Positions 11,691-57,276 of a stretch of 64,000 nt of DNA are shown here, piece after piece. A program made the translations under genes and the position numbers. The notes beneath the pieces were generated by a model that was given only the letters and a program-made list of their open reading frames with translations, was not told the DNA's origin and made no database searches. Numbering within the stretch: the first letter of the stretch is position 1; each line of letters begins with the position of its first letter. The stretch is from NCBI GenBank assembly GCA_900767645.1, contig CAAFZY010000005.1:28986-92985 (forward strand), written 5' to 3'. Source of the stretch: Alphaproteobacteria bacterium (GTDB taxonomy: Bacteria > Pseudomonadota > Alphaproteobacteria > RF32 > CAG-239).

Positions 11691-12248
11691 GTGTCAGATT
11701 TTGAAGAACAGCCTCGCAAGCCGAAAGCATTGCGCAAAATTACCAAGCAAAGGCTTAAAAATGTAGGTTTATATTACTTAAAGCGCTTTGAGTCGTCGGA
11801 GGATAATTTAAGGCAGGTGTTGCGGCGGCGGGTGAATGATTACGCTTATTATAATCCGGATTTTAACAAAACGGAGGCATACGGCTGGATAGAAGAAGTT
11901 TTAAGCGATTTTACCGGTTGGAAATATATTGACGATGAGCGATATGCCTCGCTTAAAGCGCGCGATTACTTAAATGCCGGAAAGCCTGAGCGCTACATTA
12001 AAGCTAAGCTCAAGCAAAAAGGGGTTGATGAAAACATAATTGCCGAAGTTTTAAGCAAGCAGGAATATGACTCCAAAGAAATGGCGCTTAACTTTGCCAA
12101 AAAGAAAAAAATCGGTCCGTTTCGCCCCGATGAAGAAAGCCGCAAGCTTAATCGGCAAAAAGATATGGGAACATTAATCCGCGCCGGCTTTGACTATGAC
12201 ACGGCGGCAGAGGTTTTAGGTGAGGAATTGTTTGGCGGAGAATACTAA
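11691..12248 (+). CDS. recX: RecA regulator RecX
   Basis: YIDDERYA...GxxRIxxELxxKGI-like repeats and a RecX-like C-terminus. Confidence 0.65.
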   Translation: MSDFEEQPRKPKALRKITKQRLKNVGLYYLKRFESSEDNLRQVLRRRVNDYAYYNPDFNKTEAYGWIEEVLSDFTGWKYIDDERYASLKARDYLNAGKPERYIKAKLKQKGVDENIIAEVLSKQEYDSKEMALNFAKKKKIGPFRPDEESRKLNRQKDMGTLIRAGFDYDTAAEVLGEELFGGEY

Positions 12249-13159
12249 TGGATAAAATGCTCGCGGCATTTTTTGAGTTTGTGTTTGACCGGCAGGCGGT
12301 TTGGCATAAGCGCACGGCTTTAGGGTTGCCGGCGCCGTGGACGGACGATAATATTTTGCAAAATTTCAGGTTTTGCAATGTGTATCGCGAACTTGACGGC
12401 GGAACGATTGCCATCGGCAAATATTTGGCGCAGCCGCTGCCGGCGGAGCAAAAGTTGTTTAATATTATTGCGTACCGCTTTTTTAATCGGCGTGACACAA
12501 TTGAAAATTTGTTCGGAGGGCTGCTTTCAGAGCAAAATTTTGACTTTAAAACCTTGGAAAAGCGTTTTGACGCTAAAAAGAAAGAAGAAAACATTTTCTC
12601 AAACGCATATTTGATTACGGCGCACGCCTATAACCGCAATTACCGTCCGCAAGACAAGCATGTGCAAATTTTGCTGATGCTGAATGATTTGCGCTTTAAG
12701 CTGAAAGATATAATCAAAACTCTGCACGAATCGGCACCGCAAGAGGGTTTGCGGATTATTGCCGAGGCAGTGCCGATGGCGGGGCCGTTTTTGGCGGGGC
12801 AGATTTTGCTTGACGCAACATACGCTAAAAACATTGTGCCCTATACCGCGAATGATTTTTTAATTGTGGGTCCGGGGGCGCATTGGGGACTTAACATAAT
12901 TTGCGGGCGCGCGCTTAATAAAAAAGAGGCAGATGCGGAATGTCGCAAATTGTGGCAAATGCAACCGCAGGCGTTTGCAGAGCTTAAACAAACGACCGAC
13001 AAAGACTGGAACGAGGTCAGATGGCAAAACGAATCGTATTGCGGCGGCAAGTATTTATGTTTGCACGATGTGCAAAACAGCTTGTGCGAATTTAGAAAAT
13101 ATTGGCGATTAAAACAAGGCGAAAACGCCAAAAGGCGTTATTTTAAGCCGACAAATTAA
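12248..13159 (+). CDS. conserved uncharacterised protein, translationally coupled to recX (TAATGG overlap)
   Basis: 303 aa with FRFCNVYRELDGGT and VGPGAHWGLNI motifs. No confident family assignment. Confidence 0.5.
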   Translation: MDKMLAAFFEFVFDRQAVWHKRTALGLPAPWTDDNILQNFRFCNVYRELDGGTIAIGKYLAQPLPAEQKLFNIIAYRFFNRRDTIENLFGGLLSEQNFDFKTLEKRFDAKKKEENIFSNAYLITAHAYNRNYRPQDKHVQILLMLNDLRFKLKDIIKTLHESAPQEGLRIIAEAVPMAGPFLAGQILLDATYAKNIVPYTANDFLIVGPGAHWGLNIICGRALNKKEADAECRKLWQMQPQAFAELKQTTDKDWNEVRWQNESYCGGKYLCLHDVQNSLCEFRKYWRLKQGENAKRRYFKPTN

Positions 13160-15557: not shown

Positions 15558-16211
15558 ATGAAACACATTAATGAAAACGGTCGTTCCATGGTTGAAATGC
15601 TCGGCGTGCTTGCTATTATCGGCGTTTTGTCAGTAGGCGGTATTGCTGGTTATTCAAAAGCTATGAACAAATATAAAATCAACAAAACTACCGATCAGGT
15701 TTCAATGCTCGTTGCTAACCTTCGTACTTTGTTCTCTTCACAGGGTAACTATGCCGGTTTGACCAATGCTCAAGCTAAAAAATTCGGTGTTGTTCCGAAT
15801 GATATGTACACTTCAGTATCAGGTGACAGTATTAAAAACGCTTTCGGCGGCGATGTTACTATTGCTGCTGATAAAGCAAGAAACGGCGATGCCAGCAGCA
15901 ATGAAGCTTTCACCATCAGATATGACGGTTTGTCTTCAGAAGCTTGCGTTACTGTTTCTACCGGTGACTGGGGTTCAGGTCAGGCTTCCGGCTTGATTGC
16001 TCTCGGTGCAGGTGAAACAGCAACTTTGACTACTGCAATGATGACCGCTTTAATGACAGATGGCGGAACTCCGGCAGCTGCTGCTAAAGTAGTTACAGCG
16101 CAACCTGGTGATGCCAACGTTCCGACTCCGATTACCGTAAGCCAAGCTGTTGCCGCTTGTGATGGTGGCTCTAACAACTCTTCTTACTCTGTAATGTGGA
16201 AGTACTACTAA
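15558..16211 (+). CDS. type IV pilin-like protein, paralog 1
   Basis: Prepilin-type N-terminus NENG|RSMVEMLGVLAIIGVLSV with Glu at +5. An RBS (AGGGGA) precedes the ATG at 15558. Confidence 0.65.
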   Translation: MKHINENGRSMVEMLGVLAIIGVLSVGGIAGYSKAMNKYKINKTTDQVSMLVANLRTLFSSQGNYAGLTNAQAKKFGVVPNDMYTSVSGDSIKNAFGGDVTIAADKARNGDASSNEAFTIRYDGLSSEACVTVSTGDWGSGQASGLIALGAGETATLTTAMMTALMTDGGTPAAAAKVVTAQPGDANVPTPITVSQAVAACDGGSNNSSYSVMWKYY

Positions 16212-16237
16212 TCTTATAGGTTTGTATGTAAGTACAA

Positions 16238-16270
16238 AAAGGCTCTTGCTTAACGGCAAGAGCCTTTTAA
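16238..16270. terminator. bidirectional intrinsic terminator between pilin-1 and aspS
   Basis: aaaaaggctcttgcttaacggcaagagcctttt; a second hairpin lies at 16310-16333. Confidence 0.55.
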
Positions 16271-28752: not shown

Positions 28753-28918
28753 GGTTCTTTGCAGAGGTATTATAAAAGGCACAAGTTTTATAAAAGGTGC
28801 CTGTTTACAAAATTACAAAAGGTGGCGGATTTTCCCCACCTTTTGGTGTTTTAAAAAACTTAAGGGAATTTTTATAAATACACAGTATCGTTATAATTGT
28901 TTAACGAAAGGAACAACT

Positions 28919-29830
28919 ATGGATAGGCAAGTAATTGAAATTATGAATGATGGCTTTATGCTGTCATTGCACCGAGGTTTTATTGTAGTTGAAAATAAAG
29001 AGCAGCAAATTAAACATGAAGTTCCGCTTGATAATGTGCTTGCGTTGGTGCTATCGGCCAACAATGTGGTGGTTTCAAAAAATATTATAAATGCAATTTG
29101 CGAGCAGGGCAGAAATGTTATTTTTTGTGATAAGACTTACCTGCCTTCCGCAATTACTATGCCATATACCGGACATTGGCTGATTGCTCCGCGAGTTAGG
29201 CAGCAGGTTGAATGCTCAAAACCATTACAAAAAAACTTATGGAAAAGTATTGTTCAGCATAAAATTTTGAATCAAGCTTTGGTGTTGGAATATTTTTTTC
29301 CGCAGCATGCCAATATTGAACGATTAAAACAATTATCAAAAGCAACGCTAAGTGATGATGCCAGAAATAATGAGGGAATCGCAGCGTCTATTTATTTTAA
29401 ATCATTATTCGGAAAACATTTTGTGCGCGACCGTCTTAATAATGATGTCAATATTTTGCTTAACTATACATACACGGTATTGCGCGCCGTTGTGGCCAGA
29501 GCAATTGCCGGAAGCGGATTATTGCCATATTTAGGGCTTAAGCATTGCACAAAGTCTAATCCGTTGCCGTTGGTTGATGATTTAATTGAACCGTTCAGAG
29601 CAGTGGCAGATAAAATTGTGTTTGAAGAGTTAAATAAGTTGGTGGATATAAGCAATATTGAATTAACTCCTGAAATTAAGCGCAATTTGGCAAAAGTTAT
29701 TACATATTCGGTGCAAACGGCTAAAGGCTGTATGTCATTAAATGATGCGCTTTGTGATTTTGCCGGTACTTTAGTTGCCAGTTTTGAGCAAAAGAAAGTA
29801 GCGTTAAAATATCCCGATATTTTGTTTTAA
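28919..29830 (+). CDS. cas1: CRISPR-associated endonuclease Cas1 (type II)
   Basis: FCDKTYLPS..., EGIAASIYFKSLFGKHFVR and LPYLGLKH motifs. The start was chosen at ATG 28919 (RBS AAAGGAAC) rather than at the ORF-track start 28739. Confidence 0.85.
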   Translation: MDRQVIEIMNDGFMLSLHRGFIVVENKEQQIKHEVPLDNVLALVLSANNVVVSKNIINAICEQGRNVIFCDKTYLPSAITMPYTGHWLIAPRVRQQVECSKPLQKNLWKSIVQHKILNQALVLEYFFPQHANIERLKQLSKATLSDDARNNEGIAASIYFKSLFGKHFVRDRLNNDVNILLNYTYTVLRAVVARAIAGSGLLPYLGLKHCTKSNPLPLVDDLIEPFRAVADKIVFEELNKLVDISNIELTPEIKRNLAKVITYSVQTAKGCMSLNDALCDFAGTLVASFEQKKVALKYPDILF

Positions 29831-29945
29831 ATAAAATAATGGGGGTAACTAAAGTCGCCCCCTCATCTTACGGCATTTTCAGCCTTATTATATATGTGTT
29901 GACCGTCTAATTAATCTCTGAAAAATAAGCCAACTTATATAACAA
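29831..29945 (-). ncRNA. predicted tracrRNA
   Basis: On the minus strand there is a TTGACA-16-TATATA promoter (29979-29952). It is followed by a 24-nt anti-repeat (UCAGAGAUUAAUUAGACGGUCAAC) perfectly complementary to repeat nt 7-30. A nexus-like AAGGCUGAAAAUGCCGU and a GGGGG...CCCCC hairpin plus U-run terminator follow, ending next to the cas1 stop. Confidence 0.6.
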
Positions 29946-30031
29946 TATTAGTATATAAAAAATTTAATTGAATTGTCAATTAAAATATTGTACCGTTGCT
30001 TATATTTCTATTAAAATTATAGGAGCTTGCT

Positions 30032-33000
30032 ATGAAATATTGTTTAGGACTTGATTTAGGCGTTGGCTCAATCGGTAGCGTGGTTGTGGAATTAGATAAA
30101 AATAATAATCCTGAAAATATTGCAGATGCCGGAGTGCGGATTTTTGAGGTATCGGAGGGCGCAGAAGAAAGGCGAACAAAACGCACGGCGCGTAAAAATT
30201 TAATCAGAACAAGAAAACGTTTAGAACTTTTAGCACAAAAATTGTATGAAAATAATTTATGGGTTAGTGCGAATCCTGAAGGCACAAATAATTTAAAATC
30301 AAAATCTCCTTATAAAATTCGTTATGATGCTTTAAATGGTAAGTTGGAAAATCAAAATTATATCGGGCGAGCAATTTTGCATTTGGCGAAACATCGTGGT
30401 GCCGGTTTTGTTTCAGCCGCTGAAGAAATGGAAGAAGAAGTTTTAGAAGAAGGCGAAAAATCTAAAGCTAAAAAATCTTCTTATGACATGATGCTTTATC
30501 ATTTAAAAGAAACAAATTCCAGAACTGTCGGTGAGTTTTTTTACAATAAAATAATCTCCGGTAAAGGAAATGATAAAACGGTTCGTCAGAAAAAATATGC
30601 CATTGAAAAGAATATTATAGATTACGCAATTCCGCGCTATTTGGTAAAAGATGAGTTCAATCAAATTTGGAATAAACAAGCCGAATTTTATCCACAGATG
30701 AAAAAAGAAAATTTAAAGAAAGAAATTTACGATATTTTGTTTTATGAACGTCCGGCAGCACCATACGCAACCGGTAAATGCATTTATTTCAGGGATGAAG
30801 ACCGCCTGCTAAAAGCGCACCCTCTTTCAGAGATGCGCCGTATTTATGAGGAAGTCAACAACATTCGTATTTTAAATGATATGAGTAAAAGAAAATTAAC
30901 CTTGGAAGAAAGAGATTCTATTATTAATGAGCTTTTGCTAAAAGGCCAAAATGCAGGTAAACAGGCAATCAAAAAATTGCTTAATTTGTCTGCGCAACAC
31001 AAAATTTCTTTGGTTGATGACAGAGTAATTAAAGCCTATTTATATTCTCGTCCTGAATTTGCAAATAACGAATATTTACAAAAGATGAATGAAGACGAGC
31101 TTTCATCTTTTATTGAGTTTTTGTCAGAACCAAAAATATCACAGGATAAAAATGGCCGTTTATACAATGAAGATTCGTTAATTGAGTATCTTAAGCCAAT
31201 TCTGAAAATTGATGACGAAAAAGAAATCGGCAACCTTTTAACCAAACTGCCCAAAGGGAGAGGAATGTTAGGTATAAGCGCCACAAAAATTATTCTGGAA
31301 AAATTAAAAGAAGATGTATTAACACATCGTGAAATTACCGATAAATTAGCCGAAACAGATAAACGATTTATGGCAGAGGAAGAAATAGCCCGCCAAAATC
31401 AGGGAAAATGTTTTCAACTTCCGTATTACGGGGAGATCTTGCAAACAGATACGGCTCCGCTTCCGCCTTTAATGATAAATAACAACAAGAGCCTTAACCA
31501 TGACGAGATAAAATGGGGTAAAATAGCCAATCCTGCCGTGCATATGATTCTCAATCAAATTCGCTTAGTTGTTAATGAAATTATCAAAATTTACGGCAAG
31601 CCTTACAATATCAATATTGAACTTGGTCGTGATGTCGGTATGTCAACAAAGAAGAAAAAAGAATTTGAAAACAGACAAAAACAAAATGAAAAACTTAATG
31701 AAGAGGCTAAAAAATATTTAAAAGAGCATAAAATTGTCATAAACAGTAAAAACATTTTAAAATACAAATTGGCCAAAGAGCAAGGCTGGAAAGATGCCTA
31801 TAATCCGACACAAAATATTTCTTCCGTATTTACGGGTATGGAAGTTGAGCATATTATTCCCCAAGCCAAAGGCGGAACAGATACATATAACAATCTCTGT
31901 TTAGTTAATAGCAATGACAACTTAAATAAAGGCGACCGATATGCCTATGAATATTTTGCAGAAACAAAAACACCGGAAGAAATCAGAGAAATTCTAAAAA
32001 ATGCCCGTTCCCGTACCCCTGACAAGTCTTGGCGTTTTGAAGCTGATGCGCGAGAAAAATATGAAGAAAGCGGCGATAAAGAAGAAAGTACCCGTTATTT
32101 GACGGATACCCGCTATGTTGCAAAAATGGCGGCACGTTATTTGCGAGCTATTGTTGATTGCCCTGATTGTGATGAAGTTATGGACAATCGTATTTTGGCA
32201 GTCAAAGGCGGGCAGACTGCAGAGTTGCGTAAGCGTTGGGATTTGCAAGGCTTGGAATATGATTTAATGGGCTTAAATATCCCGAGATATATTGATTGCG
32301 CGCCATATTGGCGGGAGTTGGATACCGGCGAAATAATTGACGGAGAGCAAAAGCCGGATATTGATGGTAATTGGAAATTTTATAATTGTGTAAAGAATCC
32401 TGAATGGTCGCCAAAGCCACGTATTGACCACAGACATCATGCGATGGATGCTATAACAGTTGCTTGTGCAAACCGTGGATTAATTCAGAAAATGGCAGAA
32501 GAAAATGATATTAACAAAATTCATTATCCGTTGCCTTTAACTTCTGTTGAATCTGTAGCAGATTTTAGAAGAAAAGTTATTTCCTGTCTAAAAGATATCA
32601 AAATTTCGCACAAACCTGATCACAGTAAGGCTGGACAATTACATAAAGAAACAGGCAGAACTGTTTTGTGTCAAAACCCTGATGATCCAAATTGTTTAAT
32701 CACTGTTTATTCTCGCAAAATTTTACAGGTGGTAAAATCTGCTAAAGATTTAACTAAACTGCTCATTCCAGAAACAATCAAGAATGAATGGCATGAGGAT
32801 ATTGCAGAATATAAAGCCAAACAGGCTAAGCTAGTACAAGATTTTGAACTTTATATGAATACGGCGGAGCAAATTTTAATTGCCGAAAATGAACAGGGTG
32901 TGGCAGAAGGTAAAAAGGAAATTAAAATTACTGAAGGAAGAATTTTGTTAAAGGCGTTCCGTATTATTCAAGATAAAGGCCTATGGAAAGGTGATAAATT

Positions 33001-33499
33001 TAGATGCTATGAAAATAATTCTTCTTTGGTTTATATCAAAAAACATGGTGTGGCTTATGAAGGGCGAAATAACCATTGTGTAGATTTTTACGTTAAAGAT
33101 GGTAAAGTCGGTTGGGAGGTTATTAAACGATTTGATGCAAATCAGCCTGATTTTGTTCCGCAATGGAAAAAAGACGGAGGAAAACTTATTTGGTCAGTTC
33201 AACAACGCGATATGTTGGAATTAGATACTCCTGATGAGTGGAAATCATATACCGATAAAGAGCGCTGTTTAGCTAAAGTAAAAAAGTTCAGCGATGGAGA
33301 ATTTAATATTGATTATATGGCTGACGCTCGTATGACATCGCCAAAAGATAAAAACTTAAAATATATGTTTGTTAATACTTTAAGAAAGGGGCTGGCATTT
33401 TTACTTCAGCATAAAGCGCGGAAAATAGAACTTACACCGTTTGGCAAAGTAAAGAAAAAACATAAGGTGTTGTGGAATGGCACGAAGACAGCGGCTTGA
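30032..33499 (+). CDS. cas9: Cas9 (type II-C-like, 1155 aa)
   Basis: RuvC-I GLDLGVGSIGSVVV. Arg-rich bridge helix. RuvC-II NINIELGRD. HNH VEHIIPQAKGG...NLCLVNSNDNLNKGDRYAYEYF. RuvC-III HRHHAMDAITVA. An RBS AGGAG precedes the ATG. Confidence 0.95.
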   Translation: MKYCLGLDLGVGSIGSVVVELDKNNNPENIADAGVRIFEVSEGAEERRTKRTARKNLIRTRKRLELLAQKLYENNLWVSANPEGTNNLKSKSPYKIRYDALNGKLENQNYIGRAILHLAKHRGAGFVSAAEEMEEEVLEEGEKSKAKKSSYDMMLYHLKETNSRTVGEFFYNKIISGKGNDKTVRQKKYAIEKNIIDYAIPRYLVKDEFNQIWNKQAEFYPQMKKENLKKEIYDILFYERPAAPYATGKCIYFRDEDRLLKAHPLSEMRRIYEEVNNIRILNDMSKRKLTLEERDSIINELLLKGQNAGKQAIKKLLNLSAQHKISLVDDRVIKAYLYSRPEFANNEYLQKMNEDELSSFIEFLSEPKISQDKNGRLYNEDSLIEYLKPILKIDDEKEIGNLLTKLPKGRGMLGISATKIILEKLKEDVLTHREITDKLAETDKRFMAEEEIARQNQGKCFQLPYYGEILQTDTAPLPPLMINNNKSLNHDEIKWGKIANPAVHMILNQIRLVVNEIIKIYGKPYNINIELGRDVGMSTKKKKEFENRQKQNEKLNEEAKKYLKEHKIVINSKNILKYKLAKEQGWKDAYNPTQNISSVFTGMEVEHIIPQAKGGTDTYNNLCLVNSNDNLNKGDRYAYEYFAETKTPEEIREILKNARSRTPDKSWRFEADAREKYEESGDKEESTRYLTDTRYVAKMAARYLRAIVDCPDCDEVMDNRILAVKGGQTAELRKRWDLQGLEYDLMGLNIPRYIDCAPYWRELDTGEIIDGEQKPDIDGNWKFYNCVKNPEWSPKPRIDHRHHAMDAITVACANRGLIQKMAEENDINKIHYPLPLTSVESVADFRRKVISCLKDIKISHKPDHSKAGQLHKETGRTVLCQNPDDPNCLITVYSRKILQVVKSAKDLTKLLIPETIKNEWHEDIAEYKAKQAKLVQDFELYMNTAEQILIAENEQGVAEGKKEIKITEGRILLKAFRIIQDKGLWKGDKFRCYENNSSLVYIKKHGVAYEGRNNHCVDFYVKDGKVGWEVIKRFDANQPDFVPQWKKDGGKLIWSVQQRDMLELDTPDEWKSYTDKERCLAKVKKFSDGEFNIDYMADARMTSPKDKNLKYMFVNTLRKGLAFLLQHKARKIELTPFGKVKKKHKVLWNGTKTAA

Positions 33500-33518
33500 A
33501 ACTTTAACCGGATGGTCT

Positions 33519-33839
33519 ATGATGTGGATAATATGTATGTTTGATATTCCGGTCAGGACTAAAACCGAAATGCGTAAAGCGACTCGTTTTCGTAATTTGC
33601 TTTTGGATAATGGTTTTGTTATGAAGCAGTTTTCGGTTTATATAAAACCGGTAAAAAGCTTAAATGTTGGACAAACAGTCACGAAAAGCCTTGCAAAGTA
33701 TATTCCGGATAACTCTTCTGTCTCTTTTTTATATATTACCGATAAACAATATTTAATGACGGAAAATTATTTGGGAAAAAATTATGAAGAGAATGAAGAA
33801 GAGAATCGCGAAAAAAATGGGCAATTATTGCTTTTTTAA
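33519..33839 (+). CDS. cas2: Cas2
   Basis: MMWIICMFDIPVRTKTEMRKATRFRNLLLDNGFVMKQFSVYIK matches the Cas2 beta1-alpha1 pattern. The ORF-track start 33477 would overlap cas9 by 23 nt, so the ATG at 33519 is preferred. Confidence 0.8.
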   Translation: MMWIICMFDIPVRTKTEMRKATRFRNLLLDNGFVMKQFSVYIKPVKSLNVGQTVTKSLAKYIPDNSSVSFLYITDKQYLMTENYLGKNYEENEEENREKNGQLLLF

Positions 33840-33865
33840 GGGTGTCTTTTAGCGTTTTTATAATA

Positions 33866-33900
33866 AACAAAAGCCTTGAAATGTTGTCATTTCAAGGCTT
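33866..33900 (-). terminator. hairpin terminator in the CRISPR leader, oriented for minus-strand (pre-crRNA) transcripts
   Basis: gccttgaaat-gttgtc-atttcaaggc stem-loop. On the minus strand it is followed by UUUUGUUUAUUAU. Confidence 0.5.
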
Positions 33901-33913
33901 TGCGCTATTAGAT

Positions 33914-34740
33914 AGCATATCAGAGATTAATTAGACGGTCAACTATAACTATTTCGCCCTCAATGTATCGATATTTTGTAGCATATCAGAGATTAATTAG
34001 ACGGTCAACTATAACGCTTGGTTCTGCGACGTCTCAAGGACATTTAGCATATCAGAGATTAATTAGACGGTCAACTATAACACAGTACCGGCAATGTTGT
34101 ATAGTCGTCACAGCATATCAGAGATTAATTAGACGGTCAACTATAACTGCCACCCATGAGCCCGCTTGCTATTTCTAGCATATCAGAGATTAATTAGACG
34201 GTCAACTATAACTAGCTGTCAATAGCTTTTTTATTATTTTCCAGCATATCAGAGATTAATTAGACGGTCAACTATAACTAATTTACTGTGCTCTTTTTGC
34301 TGAATAAAAGCATATCAGAGATTAATTAGACGGTCAACTATAACAGAAGTATGACGAGTACTCAGAATATTATAAGCATATCAGAGATTAATTAGACGGT
34401 CAACTATAACACAAGCTGCAGGATAGGCTTATTCAGCAAAGCATATCAGAGATTAATTAGACGGTCAACTATAACATGTTTTGCTCAATAACAGTTTTGT
34501 TAACTAGCATATCAGAGATTAATTAGACGGTCAACTATAACGCTAAAATGTTAGCGTTGGTCTTTATTGACAGCATATCAGAGATTAATTAGACGGTCAA
34601 CTATAACTATCCGGACATATTATACATCATGTCACCAAGCATATCAGAGATTAATTAGACGGTCAACTATAACAATTTTCGGACGGTGTCGGCGCATAAG
34701 TGAAGCATATCAGAGATTAATTAGACGGTCAACTTATAAC
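33914..34740 (-). CRISPR. CRISPR array of 13 copies of a 36-bp repeat and 12 spacers (ten of 30 bp, two of 29 bp). The repeat on the crRNA strand is GTTATAGTTGACCGTCTAATTAATCTCTGATATGCT.
   Basis: Repeat copies start at 33914, 33980, 34046, 34112, 34177, 34243, 34309, 34375, 34440, 34506, 34572, 34638 and 34704. The cas-distal repeat (34704-34740) carries a 1-nt insertion. The repeat begins with GTT in minus orientation and is complementary to the tracrRNA anti-repeat. Confidence 0.95.
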
Positions 34741-34755
34741 CAAGTATTGTTATAG

Positions 34756-34866
34756 CCTTTCGCTTGTAGTCGGTCTGGCTTGTAAGCTCTGCCTAAAGGC
34801 AATCGCTAACTGCGCTGCGGTCACTTGTTTTGTAAGCTCGCTGCGGTTGCTGTCGCTTTCCTTGCT
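34756..34866. repeat. partial copy (3' half) of the ~185-bp repeat element whose full copy is at 56968-57150
   Basis: cctttcgcttgtagtcggtctggct...gctgcggttgctgtcgctttcc is about 90% identical to 57031-57141. Confidence 0.7.
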
Positions 34867-35005
34867 CGCGAACAAAACTACGCTTTCGGCGATAAAAAAG
34901 CAGATAACAGCTTTTTTATCTTGAAACTCACTCCGTGAGTTCGAACCTCTACTTTCACTCATTATTTACAACAAAACCCGCCACAAGGGCGGGTGTTGTT
35001 GTAAA

Positions 35006-35026
35006 TGGCGGATAGAGTGAGATTAT
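35006..35026. repeat. duplicated 3' end of tRNA-Ser (aatggcggatagagtgagatt), att-like direct repeat
   Basis: A 21-nt exact copy of 35172-35192 lies about 150 bp from the tRNA. It is preceded by a GC hairpin. Confidence 0.65.
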
Positions 35027-35105
35027 TCCGCTGCGCTTCATTCACTGTGCTCATCGGCTATCGCCGACCGGCGTACTCCCGTCCGCCTTTCGCTTGTAGT
35101 CGAAC
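35027..35105. repeat. partial copy (5' part) of the ~185-bp repeat element
   Basis: attccgctgcgcttcattcactgtgctcatcggctatcgccgaccggcg...cctttcgcttgtagtcg is about 90% identical to 56968-57047. Confidence 0.7.
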
Positions 35106-49679: not shown

Positions 49680-50348
49680 ATGATGATGAAATATAATGAA
49701 AACGGCCGTTCAATGGTTGAAATGCTTGGCGTATTGGCGATTATCGGCGTTTTGTCGGTTGGCGGTATCGCCGGCTATTCAAAGGCTATGAACAAATACA
49801 AAATTAACAAAACTACCGATCAGGTTTCAATGCTTGTTGCTAACATCCGTACTTTGTTCTCTTCACAGGGCAACTATAAAGGTTTGACTAATGCTCAGGC
49901 TATTAAATTCGGTGTTGTTCCGAATGATATGTATACTCCTAAATCAGGAAATGCAGAGATTACTGAAATTACAAACGCTTTTGGTGGCGCTGTTACTATT
50001 GCTGCTTCAGGAGGTCGTGCTAAAGATGATAATGAAGCTTTTACTATCGCTTACAGTGGGTTGACATCTGAGGCCTGCATTACCATTGCCACCGGTGACT
50101 GGGGTTCAGGTCAGGCTTCCGGTTTGATTGGTATTGCTGCGGTTGGTAAGGAAGCAGAAGACGCTACTGATAAGGGTGCTTTGGCCAAACTTGCAGAGAT
50201 CTATACCACAGCCACTGATGGAACTGCTAATGTAAGCATACCTGGTGCTACAGATACAGCCAATAGAACTCCGATGACTGTTTCTAAAGCTGTTGGAATA
50301 TGCAATGGATCTGGCAGCACTAACTCAGTTGCTTGGAAGTACTACTAA
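49680..50348 (+). CDS. type IV pilin-like protein, paralog 2
   Basis: N-terminal 60 aa near-identical to paralogs 1 and 3 (NENGRSMVEMLGVLAIIGVLSVGGIAGYSKAMNKYKINKTTDQVSMLVAN). An RBS GAAGGA is present. Confidence 0.65.
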   Translation: MMMKYNENGRSMVEMLGVLAIIGVLSVGGIAGYSKAMNKYKINKTTDQVSMLVANIRTLFSSQGNYKGLTNAQAIKFGVVPNDMYTPKSGNAEITEITNAFGGAVTIAASGGRAKDDNEAFTIAYSGLTSEACITIATGDWGSGQASGLIGIAAVGKEAEDATDKGALAKLAEIYTTATDGTANVSIPGATDTANRTPMTVSKAVGICNGSGSTNSVAWKYY

Positions 50349-50542
50349 TTTAAGCGAGTTTATGCAAAAGTGCGGCTATCCCCTACATGCCAATCTTTTG
50401 TGTAAAGAAAATATTATGTGCATAACATAATATTTTCCCCTAACGGAAACCCGATAAATTATTATCGGGTTTCTCTCTTTTTATAAAAATAAAACTTGCA
50501 TTACGGTGCAAAGTATAATAAACATACAAACAAATAAATTTC

Positions 50543-50618
50543 GGTTCCATCGTCTAGTGGTCTAGGACGCGGCCCTCTCAAGGCTGCAACACGGGTTCAA
50601 ATCCCGTTGGAATCACCA
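50543..50618 (+). tRNA. tRNA-Glu (anticodon CUC)
   Basis: GGTTCCATCGTCTAGTGGTCTAGGAC...anticodon loop CUCUCAA...GGTTCAAATCC...ACCA. It is followed by the terminator aaaaccgcctttacggcggtttt. Confidence 0.7.
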
Positions 50619-50620
50619 AT

Positions 50621-50650
50621 ACCAAAACCGCCTTTACGGCGGTTTTATGA
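50621..50650 (+). terminator. intrinsic terminator after tRNA-Glu
   Basis: aaaaccgcc-tttac-ggcggtttt. Confidence 0.6.
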
Positions 50651-50706
50651 AGACAATCAAACCCCCGCTTTAATTAAAAAGCGGGGGTTTGTGTTAAGAA
50701 ATTATC

Positions 50707-56202: not shown

Positions 56203-56234
56203 AAACAGCCGGTGATATTGCCGGCTGTTTTTTT
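56203..56234. terminator. bidirectional terminator between groEL and pilin-3
   Basis: aaacagccggtgatattgccggctgttttttt. Confidence 0.6.
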
Positions 56235-56235
56235 A

Positions 56236-56862
56236 TTATAAATCCCATTTAATTTTTAAATGAGGAGTTTTTTTGCCGATATGCATGGTGCAAATGTCAT
56301 AAATGTTATTAAGAGTTAAATCTTTTAAGCATTGTCCTCCTTTGGCGCATTTTTGGTCGCCATACATAACCGCAATATTGTAATCATCTGTGTTCCAACC
56401 GTTCAGGCTTTCAAGTTGGGTGATGTTACCGGAGTTTTCTTTGGCGGTTATCAGTATGTTGCGGCATATCTCTAAATTTTGGGTGCTTTTAGTTTCAAGT
56501 TGAGGCTCCATAAATAAAATGACACGCTTTGCACCATCTTCATATAGCTCATAAGCGATATAATAGGCATTTTTAAAAATGTCATAAATGAACCCGTCAT
56601 AACTGACAGCCATTTCTTTGGGAATTTCGCCCATTTTAATAAAGATGCCGGTTAAGTTTGCGCCCTGTTTTAAATTAGCAAAATTATGCGCGTTGCTTGC
56701 AACCGCATTAATTACAGTGTTTAATTGTTCCGCTTGTTTGTTAAGCTTGTATTTGAACATTGCCTTAGAGTATCCGGCAATCGCCCCGACGGATAAAACC
56801 CCGATAATCGCAAGAACGCCGAGCATCTCGACCATAGACCGCCCATTTTCTGATTTCATCAT
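56236..56862 (-). CDS. type IV pilin-like protein, paralog 3
   Basis: MMKSENG|RSMVEMLGVLAIIGVLSVGAIAGYSKAMFKYKLNK. An RBS GAGGAG lies 8 nt upstream of the ATG at 56862. The ORF track extends to 56877. Confidence 0.6.
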   Translation of the reverse strand: MMKSENGRSMVEMLGVLAIIGVLSVGAIAGYSKAMFKYKLNKQAEQLNTVINAVASNAHNFANLKQGANLTGIFIKMGEIPKEMAVSYDGFIYDIFKNAYYIAYELYEDGAKRVILFMEPQLETKSTQNLEICRNILITAKENSGNITQLESLNGWNTDDYNIAVMYGDQKCAKGGQCLKDLTLNNIYDICTMHIGKKTPHLKIKWDL

Positions 56863-56919
56863 TAAAAATCTCCTCAAAAAGTTACTTTTAAAATAATATT
56901 ATCTCGCGTTTTTTTTTTG

Positions 56920-56954
56920 CAATATTTACGAGTCCGTGCTGTGTATAAGTTGTA
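56920..56954. repeat. 35-bp conserved noncoding motif, copy 2 (copy 1 at 440-474)
   Basis: See copy 1. It lies just upstream of the putative pilin-3 promoter TTGCAA-N17-TAATAT (minus strand). Confidence 0.6.
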
Positions 56955-56967
56955 TGTTATCGGCGGG

Positions 56968-57150
56968 ATTATTCCGCTGCGCTCCATTCACTGCGCTCAT
57001 CGGCTATTGCCGACCGGCGTTCTTCCGCCCGCCTTTCGCTTGTAGTCGGTCTGGCTCATAAGCTCTGCCCTATGGGCAATCGCTAACTCGCTGCGGTCAC
57101 TTGTTTTGTAAGCTCGCTGCGGTTGCTGTCGCTTTCCTGGCTCACCGTAA
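56968..57150. repeat. ~185-bp repeat element, full copy (partial copies at 34756-34866 and 35027-35105), located 3' of tRNA-Arg
   Basis: Aligned by eye to the two partial copies. It contains internal direct repeats ctcgctgcggt x2 and is followed by the hairpin aaaaaaagcaccgtaatggtgcttttttt. Confidence 0.65.
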
Positions 57151-57199: not shown

Positions 57200-57276
57200 T
57201 GGCGCGCCCGGCGGGATTCGAACTCACAACCTTCTGATCCGTAGTCAGATGCTCTATCCAATTGAGCTACGGGCGC
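57200..57276 (-). tRNA. tRNA-Arg (anticodon ACG)
   Basis: GCGCCCGTAGCTCAATTGGATAGAGCA...anticodon loop CUACGGA...GGTTGTGAGTTCGAATC...GCCA, from the reverse complement. Confidence 0.85.

Follow-up and report, generated by a model that had tools for sequence, protein, structure and literature searches.

Three scattered type IVb-like prepilin genes in an alphaproteobacterium, one of them hypervariable between strains

We describe three scattered genes for type IV pilin-like proteins, here called pil1, pil2 and pil3, in a 64-kb stretch of alphaproteobacterial DNA (contig CAAFZY010000005.1, positions 28,986 to 92,985; 41.3% GC). This whole stretch is referred to as the window, and all sequences compared with it are metagenome assemblies. 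The evidence supports a type IVb fold for all three products, and one of the genes, pil2, differs sharply between strains that are otherwise nearly identical. We favor, with a probability of about 70%, the reading that the three genes encode independently transcribed type IVb prepilins, which would serve as the constant (pil1), divergent (pil3) and recombination-diversified (pil2) subunits of a PilN-type pilus.

The initial annotation of the window had proposed three pilin-like open reading frames. All three are present, and a six-frame motif scan of the 64 kb found exactly three copies of the pilin N-terminal motif. pil1 (15558..16211, + strand) encodes a type IVb prepilin of 217 amino acids (aa) from its ATG, with the leader MKHINENG, a predicted mature start at Arg9 and a Glu at +5. 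Gene callers place the start of this gene at TTG 15507 (234 aa). The ATG at 15558 is likelier on sequence grounds, because the leader of 6-8 residues that results from it occurs in 116 of 120 pil1/2 homologs; longer leaders occur only as insertions in some members of the pil3 subfamily. pil2 (49680..50348, + strand) encodes a type IVb prepilin of 222 aa and is the hypervariable, accessory paralog; its start in gene callers is ATG 49686 (220 aa). pil3 (56236..56862, - strand) encodes a divergent type IVb pilin-like protein of 208 aa with the leader MMKSENG, which forms a subfamily of its own without a Pfam domain. The mature proteins would be 209, 213 and 202 aa long for pil1, pil2 and pil3, respectively. 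Each gene is complete, with its own ribosome-binding site (RBS), start codon and strong terminator. All three are monocistronic and lie among housekeeping genes (aspS, rplM-rpsI and groEL) in every strain compared.

Assignment to the type IVb class draws on sequence matches, modeled folds and conserved cysteines. A signal of the type NENG↓RSMVEMLGVLAIIGVLSVG, in which the arrow marks the predicted cleavage site, is present in all three genes with leaders of 5-8 residues, and its layout is that of a class III signal: a short hydrophilic leader, Gly at -1, about 20 hydrophobic residues and Glu at +5. Pfam models of type IVb pilins match pil1 and pil2 well above their cutoffs (PilS_N, PF08805, 62.1 and 56.6 bits against a cutoff of 22; Bundlin, PF05307, 48.4 and 47.0 bits against 22.3). 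A phmmer search matched pil1 to TcpA (8uhf) with an E value of 1.8e-7, and PilS of S. Typhi was also matched. In this alignment, residue 3 of mature TcpA falls on residue 11 of pil1, so that +1 is Arg9 and the Glu stands at +5, which lends independent support to that Glu and to the predicted G↓R cleavage site. The AlphaFold model of pil1 (mean per-residue confidence, pLDDT, 71.9) had type IVb major pilins as all of its top 16 PDB matches (TcpA, CofA/CFA-III and PilS), with probabilities of 0.99-1.00 and template modeling (TM) scores up to 0.69. The best fold matches of the pil3 model were the CFA/III pilin and TcpA, and all significant PDB fold matches were type IVb pilins. The models show a long N-terminal alpha1 helix on an antiparallel beta-sheet and a D-region bounded by a Cys pair; Cys130 and Cys201 are invariant in the pil1/2 family, and four Cys are invariant in the pil3 family. 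For these reasons, pil1, pil2 and pil3 are all supported as type IVb-fold pilins with a class III signal. The prepilin-peptidase-type signal with Glu at +5 that had been proposed for them is thus borne out, and a reading as ordinary Sec signals is not. Two further features agree with the class, namely a residue other than Phe at +1 (Arg) and the large size of the mature pilin (about 180-210 aa in reference proteins). The Arg at +1 is invariant in the 120 homologs and in 113 copies from 52 species. Automated annotation already names the family "type 4 pilus major pilin", and one pil3 homolog carries the NCBI name "type II secretion system protein, partial".

The first 60 residues of the three proteins had been described as almost identical. 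This is accurate for pil1 and pil2, in which 77 of 80 residues agree from NENG onward; in pil3 the likeness covers only about the first 38 mature residues, with 33 of 36 residues identical to the others between ENG and KYK and divergence thereafter. The C-terminal divergence noted at the same time was confirmed, with overall identities of 72% between pil1 and pil2 and 34% for pil3. Synonymous differences are found at 14 of 36 identical codons between pil1 and pil2 and at 20-21 of 33 between pil3 and its paralogs, and the regions upstream of the three genes do not align. Because synonymous sites differ and the upstream DNA cannot be aligned, the agreement of the N-termini is attributed to selection at the protein level: the codon comparison shows purifying selection holding the shared N-terminus constant. 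Recent gene conversion as the source of the identical N-termini is ruled out by the same synonymous differences. A constant N-terminus is to be expected of a segment that the peptidase would recognize and that would pack into the core of the filament.

Contig CABQFE010000001.1 of the metagenome-assembled genome (MAG) GCA_902463375.1, from a human gut metagenome, matches the window at 100% identity; the species is also represented by GCA_037420565.1. Strains about 99% identical were found in many other gut metagenomes, Hadza samples included. Between strains, the flanking genes are 98-100% identical. pil1 shows 97.4-99.8% nucleotide identity across nine strains, like its own flanks, with scattered differences, and pil3 is 97.9-98.9% identical and conserved except in its leader. 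In pil2, only the first ~220 nt are conserved. Identity of pil2 to strain L002 in sliding windows is 100% up to position 49819 and then runs through 93, 90, 70, 50, 78, 61, 50, 56 and 70%; it is back at 98-100% from 50351, and the variation ends at the stop codon. Twelve strains whose rplM-rpsI flank is 98.2-100% identical carried at least five pil2 allele classes, with identities of 45-63% between classes over the C-terminal two thirds, and strain L119 lacks pil2 altogether. The hypervariable part (49880..50348, + strand) comprises the loop before beta1, the beta1-beta2 loop and the D-region between the two conserved Cys, and the entropy maxima coincide with these (alignment columns 81-90, 101-120 and 151-200). 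Synonymous divergence (dS) between pil2 alleles is 0.03-0.8 against 0.005-0.03 in the flanks, from which it follows that the alleles are much older than the strain backbone. The ratio of nonsynonymous to synonymous divergence (dN/dS) in the C-terminal part within classes is 0.33-1.76, compared with about 0 in the ribosomal-protein flanks.

A part of this diversity can be traced to pil1. Where it encodes the invariant N-terminus, the pil2 gene of strain L001 is 80-94% identical to the pil1 gene of its own contig; inside the otherwise hypervariable part, it contains a 157-nt perfect run of pil1 sequence (215 nt with at most two differences). This mosaic recurs at 97% identity in L123, which comes from an independent sample and assembler. 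In strain L120, a different pil1 tract lies in the 5' half of pil2 as a 161-nt perfect run. The longest perfect run shared by pil1 and pil2 in tract-free strains is only 29-32 nt. pil1 is taken as the donor and pil2 as the recipient because pil1 is constant in all strains; the mosaics in these assemblies thus show conversion tracts from pil1 diversifying pil2. A diversity-generating retroelement (DGR) was rejected as the source of pil2 diversity, since the variation is block-wise and not A-specific; no reverse transcriptase was found among the annotated genes, with no formal DGR test made.

In other strains, the leader codons of pil3 (window 56845-56862) are the site of a different kind of change, in which MKSEN is replaced in-frame by a repeat-like insert. 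The insert is about 117 nt long in L001 (12315-12443) and about 225 nt in L003 (12314-12550). The leaders become 44 and 80 aa long and run up to G↓RSMVEM as before; the promoter, RBS and ATG are unchanged, and the flanks are about 99% identical. Leader extensions of 13-129 aa occur in about 48 of 118 pil3-subfamily proteins (about 40%); the start was called from an internal Met in only 2 of 120. In other species (L056, L077 and L090), similar DNA lies immediately upstream of family pilin genes.

The large dispersed family that the initial annotation had suspected was confirmed in related genomes. A scan of species-representative genomes gave at least 579 matches, of which at least 566 were confirmed. 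Except for a few evidently mislabeled bins, all of them come from MAGs of alphaproteobacteria of the gut or rumen; the best match was 69% identical, and the window's own species was not among the matches listed. The best 80 loci held 113 copies from 52 genomes or species, and single genomes reached 8 copies or more. The globular domain alone (E <=1e-3) formed 571 clusters at 50% identity, and the initial homolog search indicated thousands of clusters. In at least nine related species, genes for assembly machinery or a peptidase lie near family pilins. The complete operon found beside family pilins in relatives, the gene order of which we take to resemble that of R64, encodes a TcpQ/PilL-like protein, a secretin, PilO, a PilP-like protein, a GspE-type ATPase, a PilC-like platform protein and a PilT-family ATPase. 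TcpQ, Secretin, PAP_PilO, T2SSE and T2SSF all score above their Pfam cutoffs; the secretin falls just under the NCBIfam cutoff of the PilN type IVB model TIGR02520 (283.3 against 287.65 bits), as does the PilP-like protein under its own (31.6 against 34.65 bits). Peptidase_A24 genes are present in L045 and L057, and the copy in L057 adjoins groEL and a family pilin. The neighbors downstream of the operon (phosphoribosyltransferase, AhpC, VWA, PP2C, kinase and NMO) are constant in at least four species. Some relatives keep family pilins inside the operon. The operon of L105, which by GC content, GC content at third codon positions (GC3) and shared repeats is a close relative of the window organism, of unproven identity at the species level, has no GRSMVEM-type pilin, which fits major pilins encoded elsewhere. 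A Tad, competence or type II secretion system (T2SS) pilus had been offered as one role for these proteins; that proposal is not supported, as family pilins in relatives are linked to machinery of the R64/PilN type IVb kind with a PilT-like ATPase.

Several peculiarities of the operons in relatives were observed. The first pilin-like gene after the platform gene (L105:11828-12424, where it is the sole pilin-like gene of the operon, and L095:12838-13425) encodes 195-198 aa with a weak PilS/Bundlin match; in place of a G↓xxxxE signal, its product has an extended basic N-terminus and a single hydrophobic segment. In the most prevalent related species (L095-L104: 1-2810), the pilus operon is preceded by divergently oriented VirB4/TrbE and two TrbC-like genes, and the operon pilin of 186-191 aa varies strongly between strains with an identical ATPase. 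The search with the globular domain also gave proteins of 600-870 aa that end in a PilS/Bundlin domain (...VAWKYY) (P0362, 852 aa; P0373; P0396; P0406, 711 aa; and about eight others). The class III signal and helix are replaced in proteins of the P0362 type by an N-terminal region of ~540-660 aa with a signal-like start and no Pfam match. Provided that these are not gene-call fusions, a non-pilin protein seems to have acquired the pilin head domain.

The surroundings of the three genes are as follows. A terminator-like hairpin with a 14-bp stem lies 26 nt past the stop codon of pil1 (16237..16268, + strand), and another with a 13-bp stem lies downstream of pil2 (50445..50474, + strand). A bidirectional terminator hairpin (56203..56230) is common to the convergent groEL and pil3. 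Upstream of the pil3 RBS (GAGGAG) is a sigma-70-like -35/-10 pair (TTGCAA, 18 nt, TATTAT; 56893..56922, - strand), which is a consensus match only; sigma-70 promoter scans around the pilin genes did no better than on shuffled sequence and carry no evidential weight. tRNA-Glu(CTC) (50543..50618, + strand) lies 195 nt 3' of pil2, and tRNA-Arg(ACG) (57200..57276, - strand) about 340 nt upstream of pil3. A dispersed repeat of ~180 nt (56967..57143) stands between pil3 and tRNA-Arg, with further copies beside tRNA-Ser (34755-34867 and 35021-35102); the copies are 93% identical to each other, and the repeat also occurs in the related species L025 and L105 (L105:19223-19277 and 19408-19462). The flanks of pil1 and pil2 have no repeat elsewhere within the 64-kb window. 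The suggestion that two of the genes sit beside tRNA genes and repeats therefore stands for both tRNAs and, as to the repeat, for pil3 only. The interval from tRNA-Glu to the H+-pyrophosphatase gene (window 50620-50706) is a strain-variable island that starts just past the tRNA and resembles a defense-gene hotspot: depending on the strain, it carries GmrSD, a HI_0787_N-like gene or small unknown genes (L001:4217-6061; L116:284-1054; L119:18-2154), and in L119 type III CRISPR-Cas genes (RAMP and Cas6) occupy the place of pil2 as well.

We propose the following scheme. An A24 prepilin peptidase would cut after Gly and expose an N-terminus of Arg(+1)-Ser-Met-Val-Glu(+5) followed by the hydrophobic alpha1, the part that all three would use for extraction from the membrane and for packing in the filament. 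The subunits would then be polymerized through this common helix by a machine of the R64/PilN type whose genes lie elsewhere on the chromosome, consisting of a TcpQ/PilL-like protein, PilN secretin, PilO, PilP, a GspE-type ATPase, a PilC-like platform and a PilT-like retraction ATPase. pil1 would be the constant pilin, and pil3 would be conserved but divergent, perhaps with the role of a minor or initiator subunit. pil2 would be an accessory alternative pilin. Homologous recombination, with its anchors in the 5' half and at the 3' end, both of them conserved, diversifies the surface-exposed loops and D-region of pil2 over population timescales. This diversity would come from two sources, replacement by old divergent alleles and non-reciprocal conversion from pil1. 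Selection by phages or host antibodies is the likely driver.

A number of observations weigh against this scheme. It rests on metagenome assemblies throughout; the set of 12 strains behind the pil2 alleles is small, and the L120-type tract was found once, in a single contig. The dN/dS ratio averaged over the whole C-terminal part of pil2 is mostly at or below 1, so that positive selection is suggested rather than demonstrated. The generic N-methylation models score below their cutoffs (PF07963, 14.5, 15.0 and 16.2 bits against 21.2; TIGR02532, 11.3 and 10.4 bits against 16.3), probably because of Arg at +1 and Ser at +2, and the shortfall is nonetheless real. The short leader is unlike that of classical type IVb pilins, and we know of no precedent for Arg at the +1 position of a pilin; cleavage at G↓R is for this reason unproven. 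The 64-kb window contains no assembly ATPase, platform protein, secretin or A24 peptidase, and the assembly genes identified are not linked to the window's MAG or species, the ATPase variants (P0197, P0238, P0232 and cluster members) coming from other samples and MAGs. The initial annotation had made its case depend on a prepilin peptidase and an assembly ATPase in the genome; both are present in relatives, and none is tied to this genome.

The diversity of pil2 raises the question of programmed variation. A system like that of Neisseria, in which pil2 would be the expression locus for high-frequency antigenic or phase variation within one lineage and pil1 and further paralogs the donor reservoir, would account for the non-reciprocal-looking tracts from conserved pil1 into variable pil2, at positions that differ by strain, and for the several paralogs per genome in relatives; the strain-variable in-frame insertions in the pil3 leader could serve as switches. 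We nevertheless consider it decidedly improbable. All copies are complete with their own RBS and terminator; a tblastn search with 14 C-terminal domains found no 5'-truncated pilin cassettes or alternative C-terminal fragments in the window, and no G-quadruplex (G4) motif (G3+N1-7 x4) occurs on either strand of the 64 kb. The paralog N-termini differ at 14-21 synonymous sites, so exchange must be too infrequent to homogenize the paralogs. The sequences compared include no donor for most pil2 allele classes, and dS values up to 0.8 indicate old alleles, with the assemblies yielding one consensus pil2 allele per sample. The idea of antigenic variation through a recombination reservoir thus survives in part, in that one member is diversified by recombination that includes pil1 tracts, and not in its Neisseria form. 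In another scheme, the lineage would have a pilin variation system of its own kind, with expressed complete paralogs that share the invariant Arg(+1) N-terminus doubling as subunits and donors, pil2 as the recipient, and the pil3 leader inserts modulating processing or expression, which would allow within-host switching without cassettes, G4 or invertases; we regard it as speculative and unlikely.

The remaining alternatives concern what the proteins and the mosaics are. That the genes might serve the thin pilus of an integrated, R64-like conjugative element, and hence mating-pair formation rather than colonization, is suggested by the R64-like gene order and content, the 283-bit match of the secretin to the PilN type IVB model, and the VirB4/TrbC genes adjoining the operon in one species. 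The same chromosomal downstream neighbors are found in at least four species with or without type IV secretion system genes adjacent, the pilin genes sit beside aspS, rplM-rpsI and groEL in every strain, no relaxase or shufflon was seen, and a PilT-like ATPase is present, which to our knowledge R64 lacks; these points make conjugation very improbable. Pseudopilins of a T2SS, or other non-filament proteins with a pilin likeness limited to the N-terminal helix, are hinted at by the NCBI name of the pil3 homolog and by weak sub-threshold NCBIfam matches of pil3 to GspH and XpsH. This is hardly credible given that the globular domains of pil1 and pil2 exceed the PilS_N and Bundlin cutoffs, that their fold matches are type IVb major pilins only, that pil3 folds best onto the CFA/III pilin and TcpA, and that the linked machinery (PilN-type secretin, PilO, PilP and PilT-like ATPase) is not the Gsp set. 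Lastly, mosaic pil2 alleles could be assembly chimeras of pil1 and pil2 reads, as all sequences are short-read assemblies and the L120-type tract stands in a single contig. The shared runs of 29-32 nt in tract-free strains would probably be too short for this at a final k of 119-141 (as read from the contig names), and two switches would be needed. In addition, the L001-type mosaic recurs 97% identical in the independent sample and assembler of L123, and the strain hypervariability is independent of the mosaics, leaving scant probability for chimeras.

Other features of the window were noted. A CRISPR-Cas locus (28739-34740) has the unusual order cas1 (28739-29830), cas9-like (30032-33499) and cas2 (33477-33839), with an array of ~12.5 units and a 66-nt period after cas2 (33914-34740). 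The cas9-like gene carries RuvC_III, HNH and Cas9 alpha-lobe domains, and its GC content of 35.6% is below that of housekeeping genes. A 1401-aa autotransporter (21037-25242, + strand; Pfam Autotransporter on a gene call of 1454 aa) combines a long passenger domain rich in Gly and Asn with four Cys-rich modules in tandem (CDTTEYPI.GSCPDNGVCGQC...) close to its N-terminus, and is likely another surface protein. Between recX and ruvC, a 303-aa protein (12248-13159, + strand) matches Pfam HMUDK_hel (PF18723) in the precomputed annotation; this domain of phage 5-hydroxymethyluracil DNA kinase is unexpected at a conserved chromosomal position.

Gut and rumen alphaproteobacteria of this group are common and uncultured, and their attachment to hosts, phages and partner cells is little understood. 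The order Rs-D84 has been described as having reduced genomes, with type IV pili reported only for another lineage (PMC12306168); the host of the window is not assigned to Rs-D84 here. No description of the pilin family, its motif or pili in this lineage was found in the searchable literature. Nor did we find described the combination of a short leader with an invariant Arg at +1, dispersed complete paralogs, a hypervariable pil2 with pil1 tracts and leader inserts in pil3. The three genes bring a known surface-variation strategy to a little-known commensal lineage, which extends the principles of pilus biology and overturns none. Few genes vary as much as pil2 between strains that are otherwise nearly the same, and paralog conversion contributes to this; pil2 can thus serve as a strain marker and is a candidate for selection by phages or immunoglobulin A (IgA) in a commensal. 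If cleavage is confirmed, Arg at +1 with a short leader would widen the known substrate range of prepilin peptidases.

Rickettsia palindromic elements are in-frame insertions in coding genes, and the pil3 inserts are likewise short repeat-like DNA in-frame in an alphaproteobacterial gene. The likeness lies in the in-frame insertion only, and the pil3 inserts differ in that they hit a cleavable leader, between the start codon and G↓R. The R64 shufflon, in which PilV is switched by Rci, resembles the present case in having a variable C-terminal part, a constant N-terminus and an R64-like type IVb pilus. In contrast to the shufflon, pil2 has no inverted sfx-like repeats nearby (only the terminator palindrome), no alternative C-terminal segments and no recombinase next to it, and its diversity arises by homologous recombination rather than site-specific inversion. 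With the type IVa pilE/pilS system of Neisseria, the present genes share a conserved N-terminal coding region with variable C-terminal regions, short non-reciprocal tracts from a conserved paralog into a variable locus, and variation focused in exposed loops and the D-region. Unlike pilS, the donor pil1 is a complete, expressible-looking gene rather than a promoterless 5'-truncated cassette; there is no G4, the N-termini are not homogenized at synonymous sites, the pilin is of type IVb, and pil2 variation is documented between strains only. The closest comparison is with the type IVb major pilins TcpA of V. cholerae, CofA (CFA/III) and LngA of enterotoxigenic E. coli, PilS of S. Typhi and plasmid R64, and bundlin (BfpA) of enteropathogenic E. 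coli, a class described elsewhere mainly in enteric pathogens and on conjugative plasmids. Known members have leaders of 13-30 residues and a pilin gene inside a compact operon, whereas the genes described here have leaders of 5-8 residues, as in type IVa, and an invariant Arg at +1. They are multiplied and scattered outside an operon as complete paralogs, one of which is hypervariable between strains, and they occur in a commensal alphaproteobacterium that is uncultured, not in an enteric pathogen or on a plasmid.
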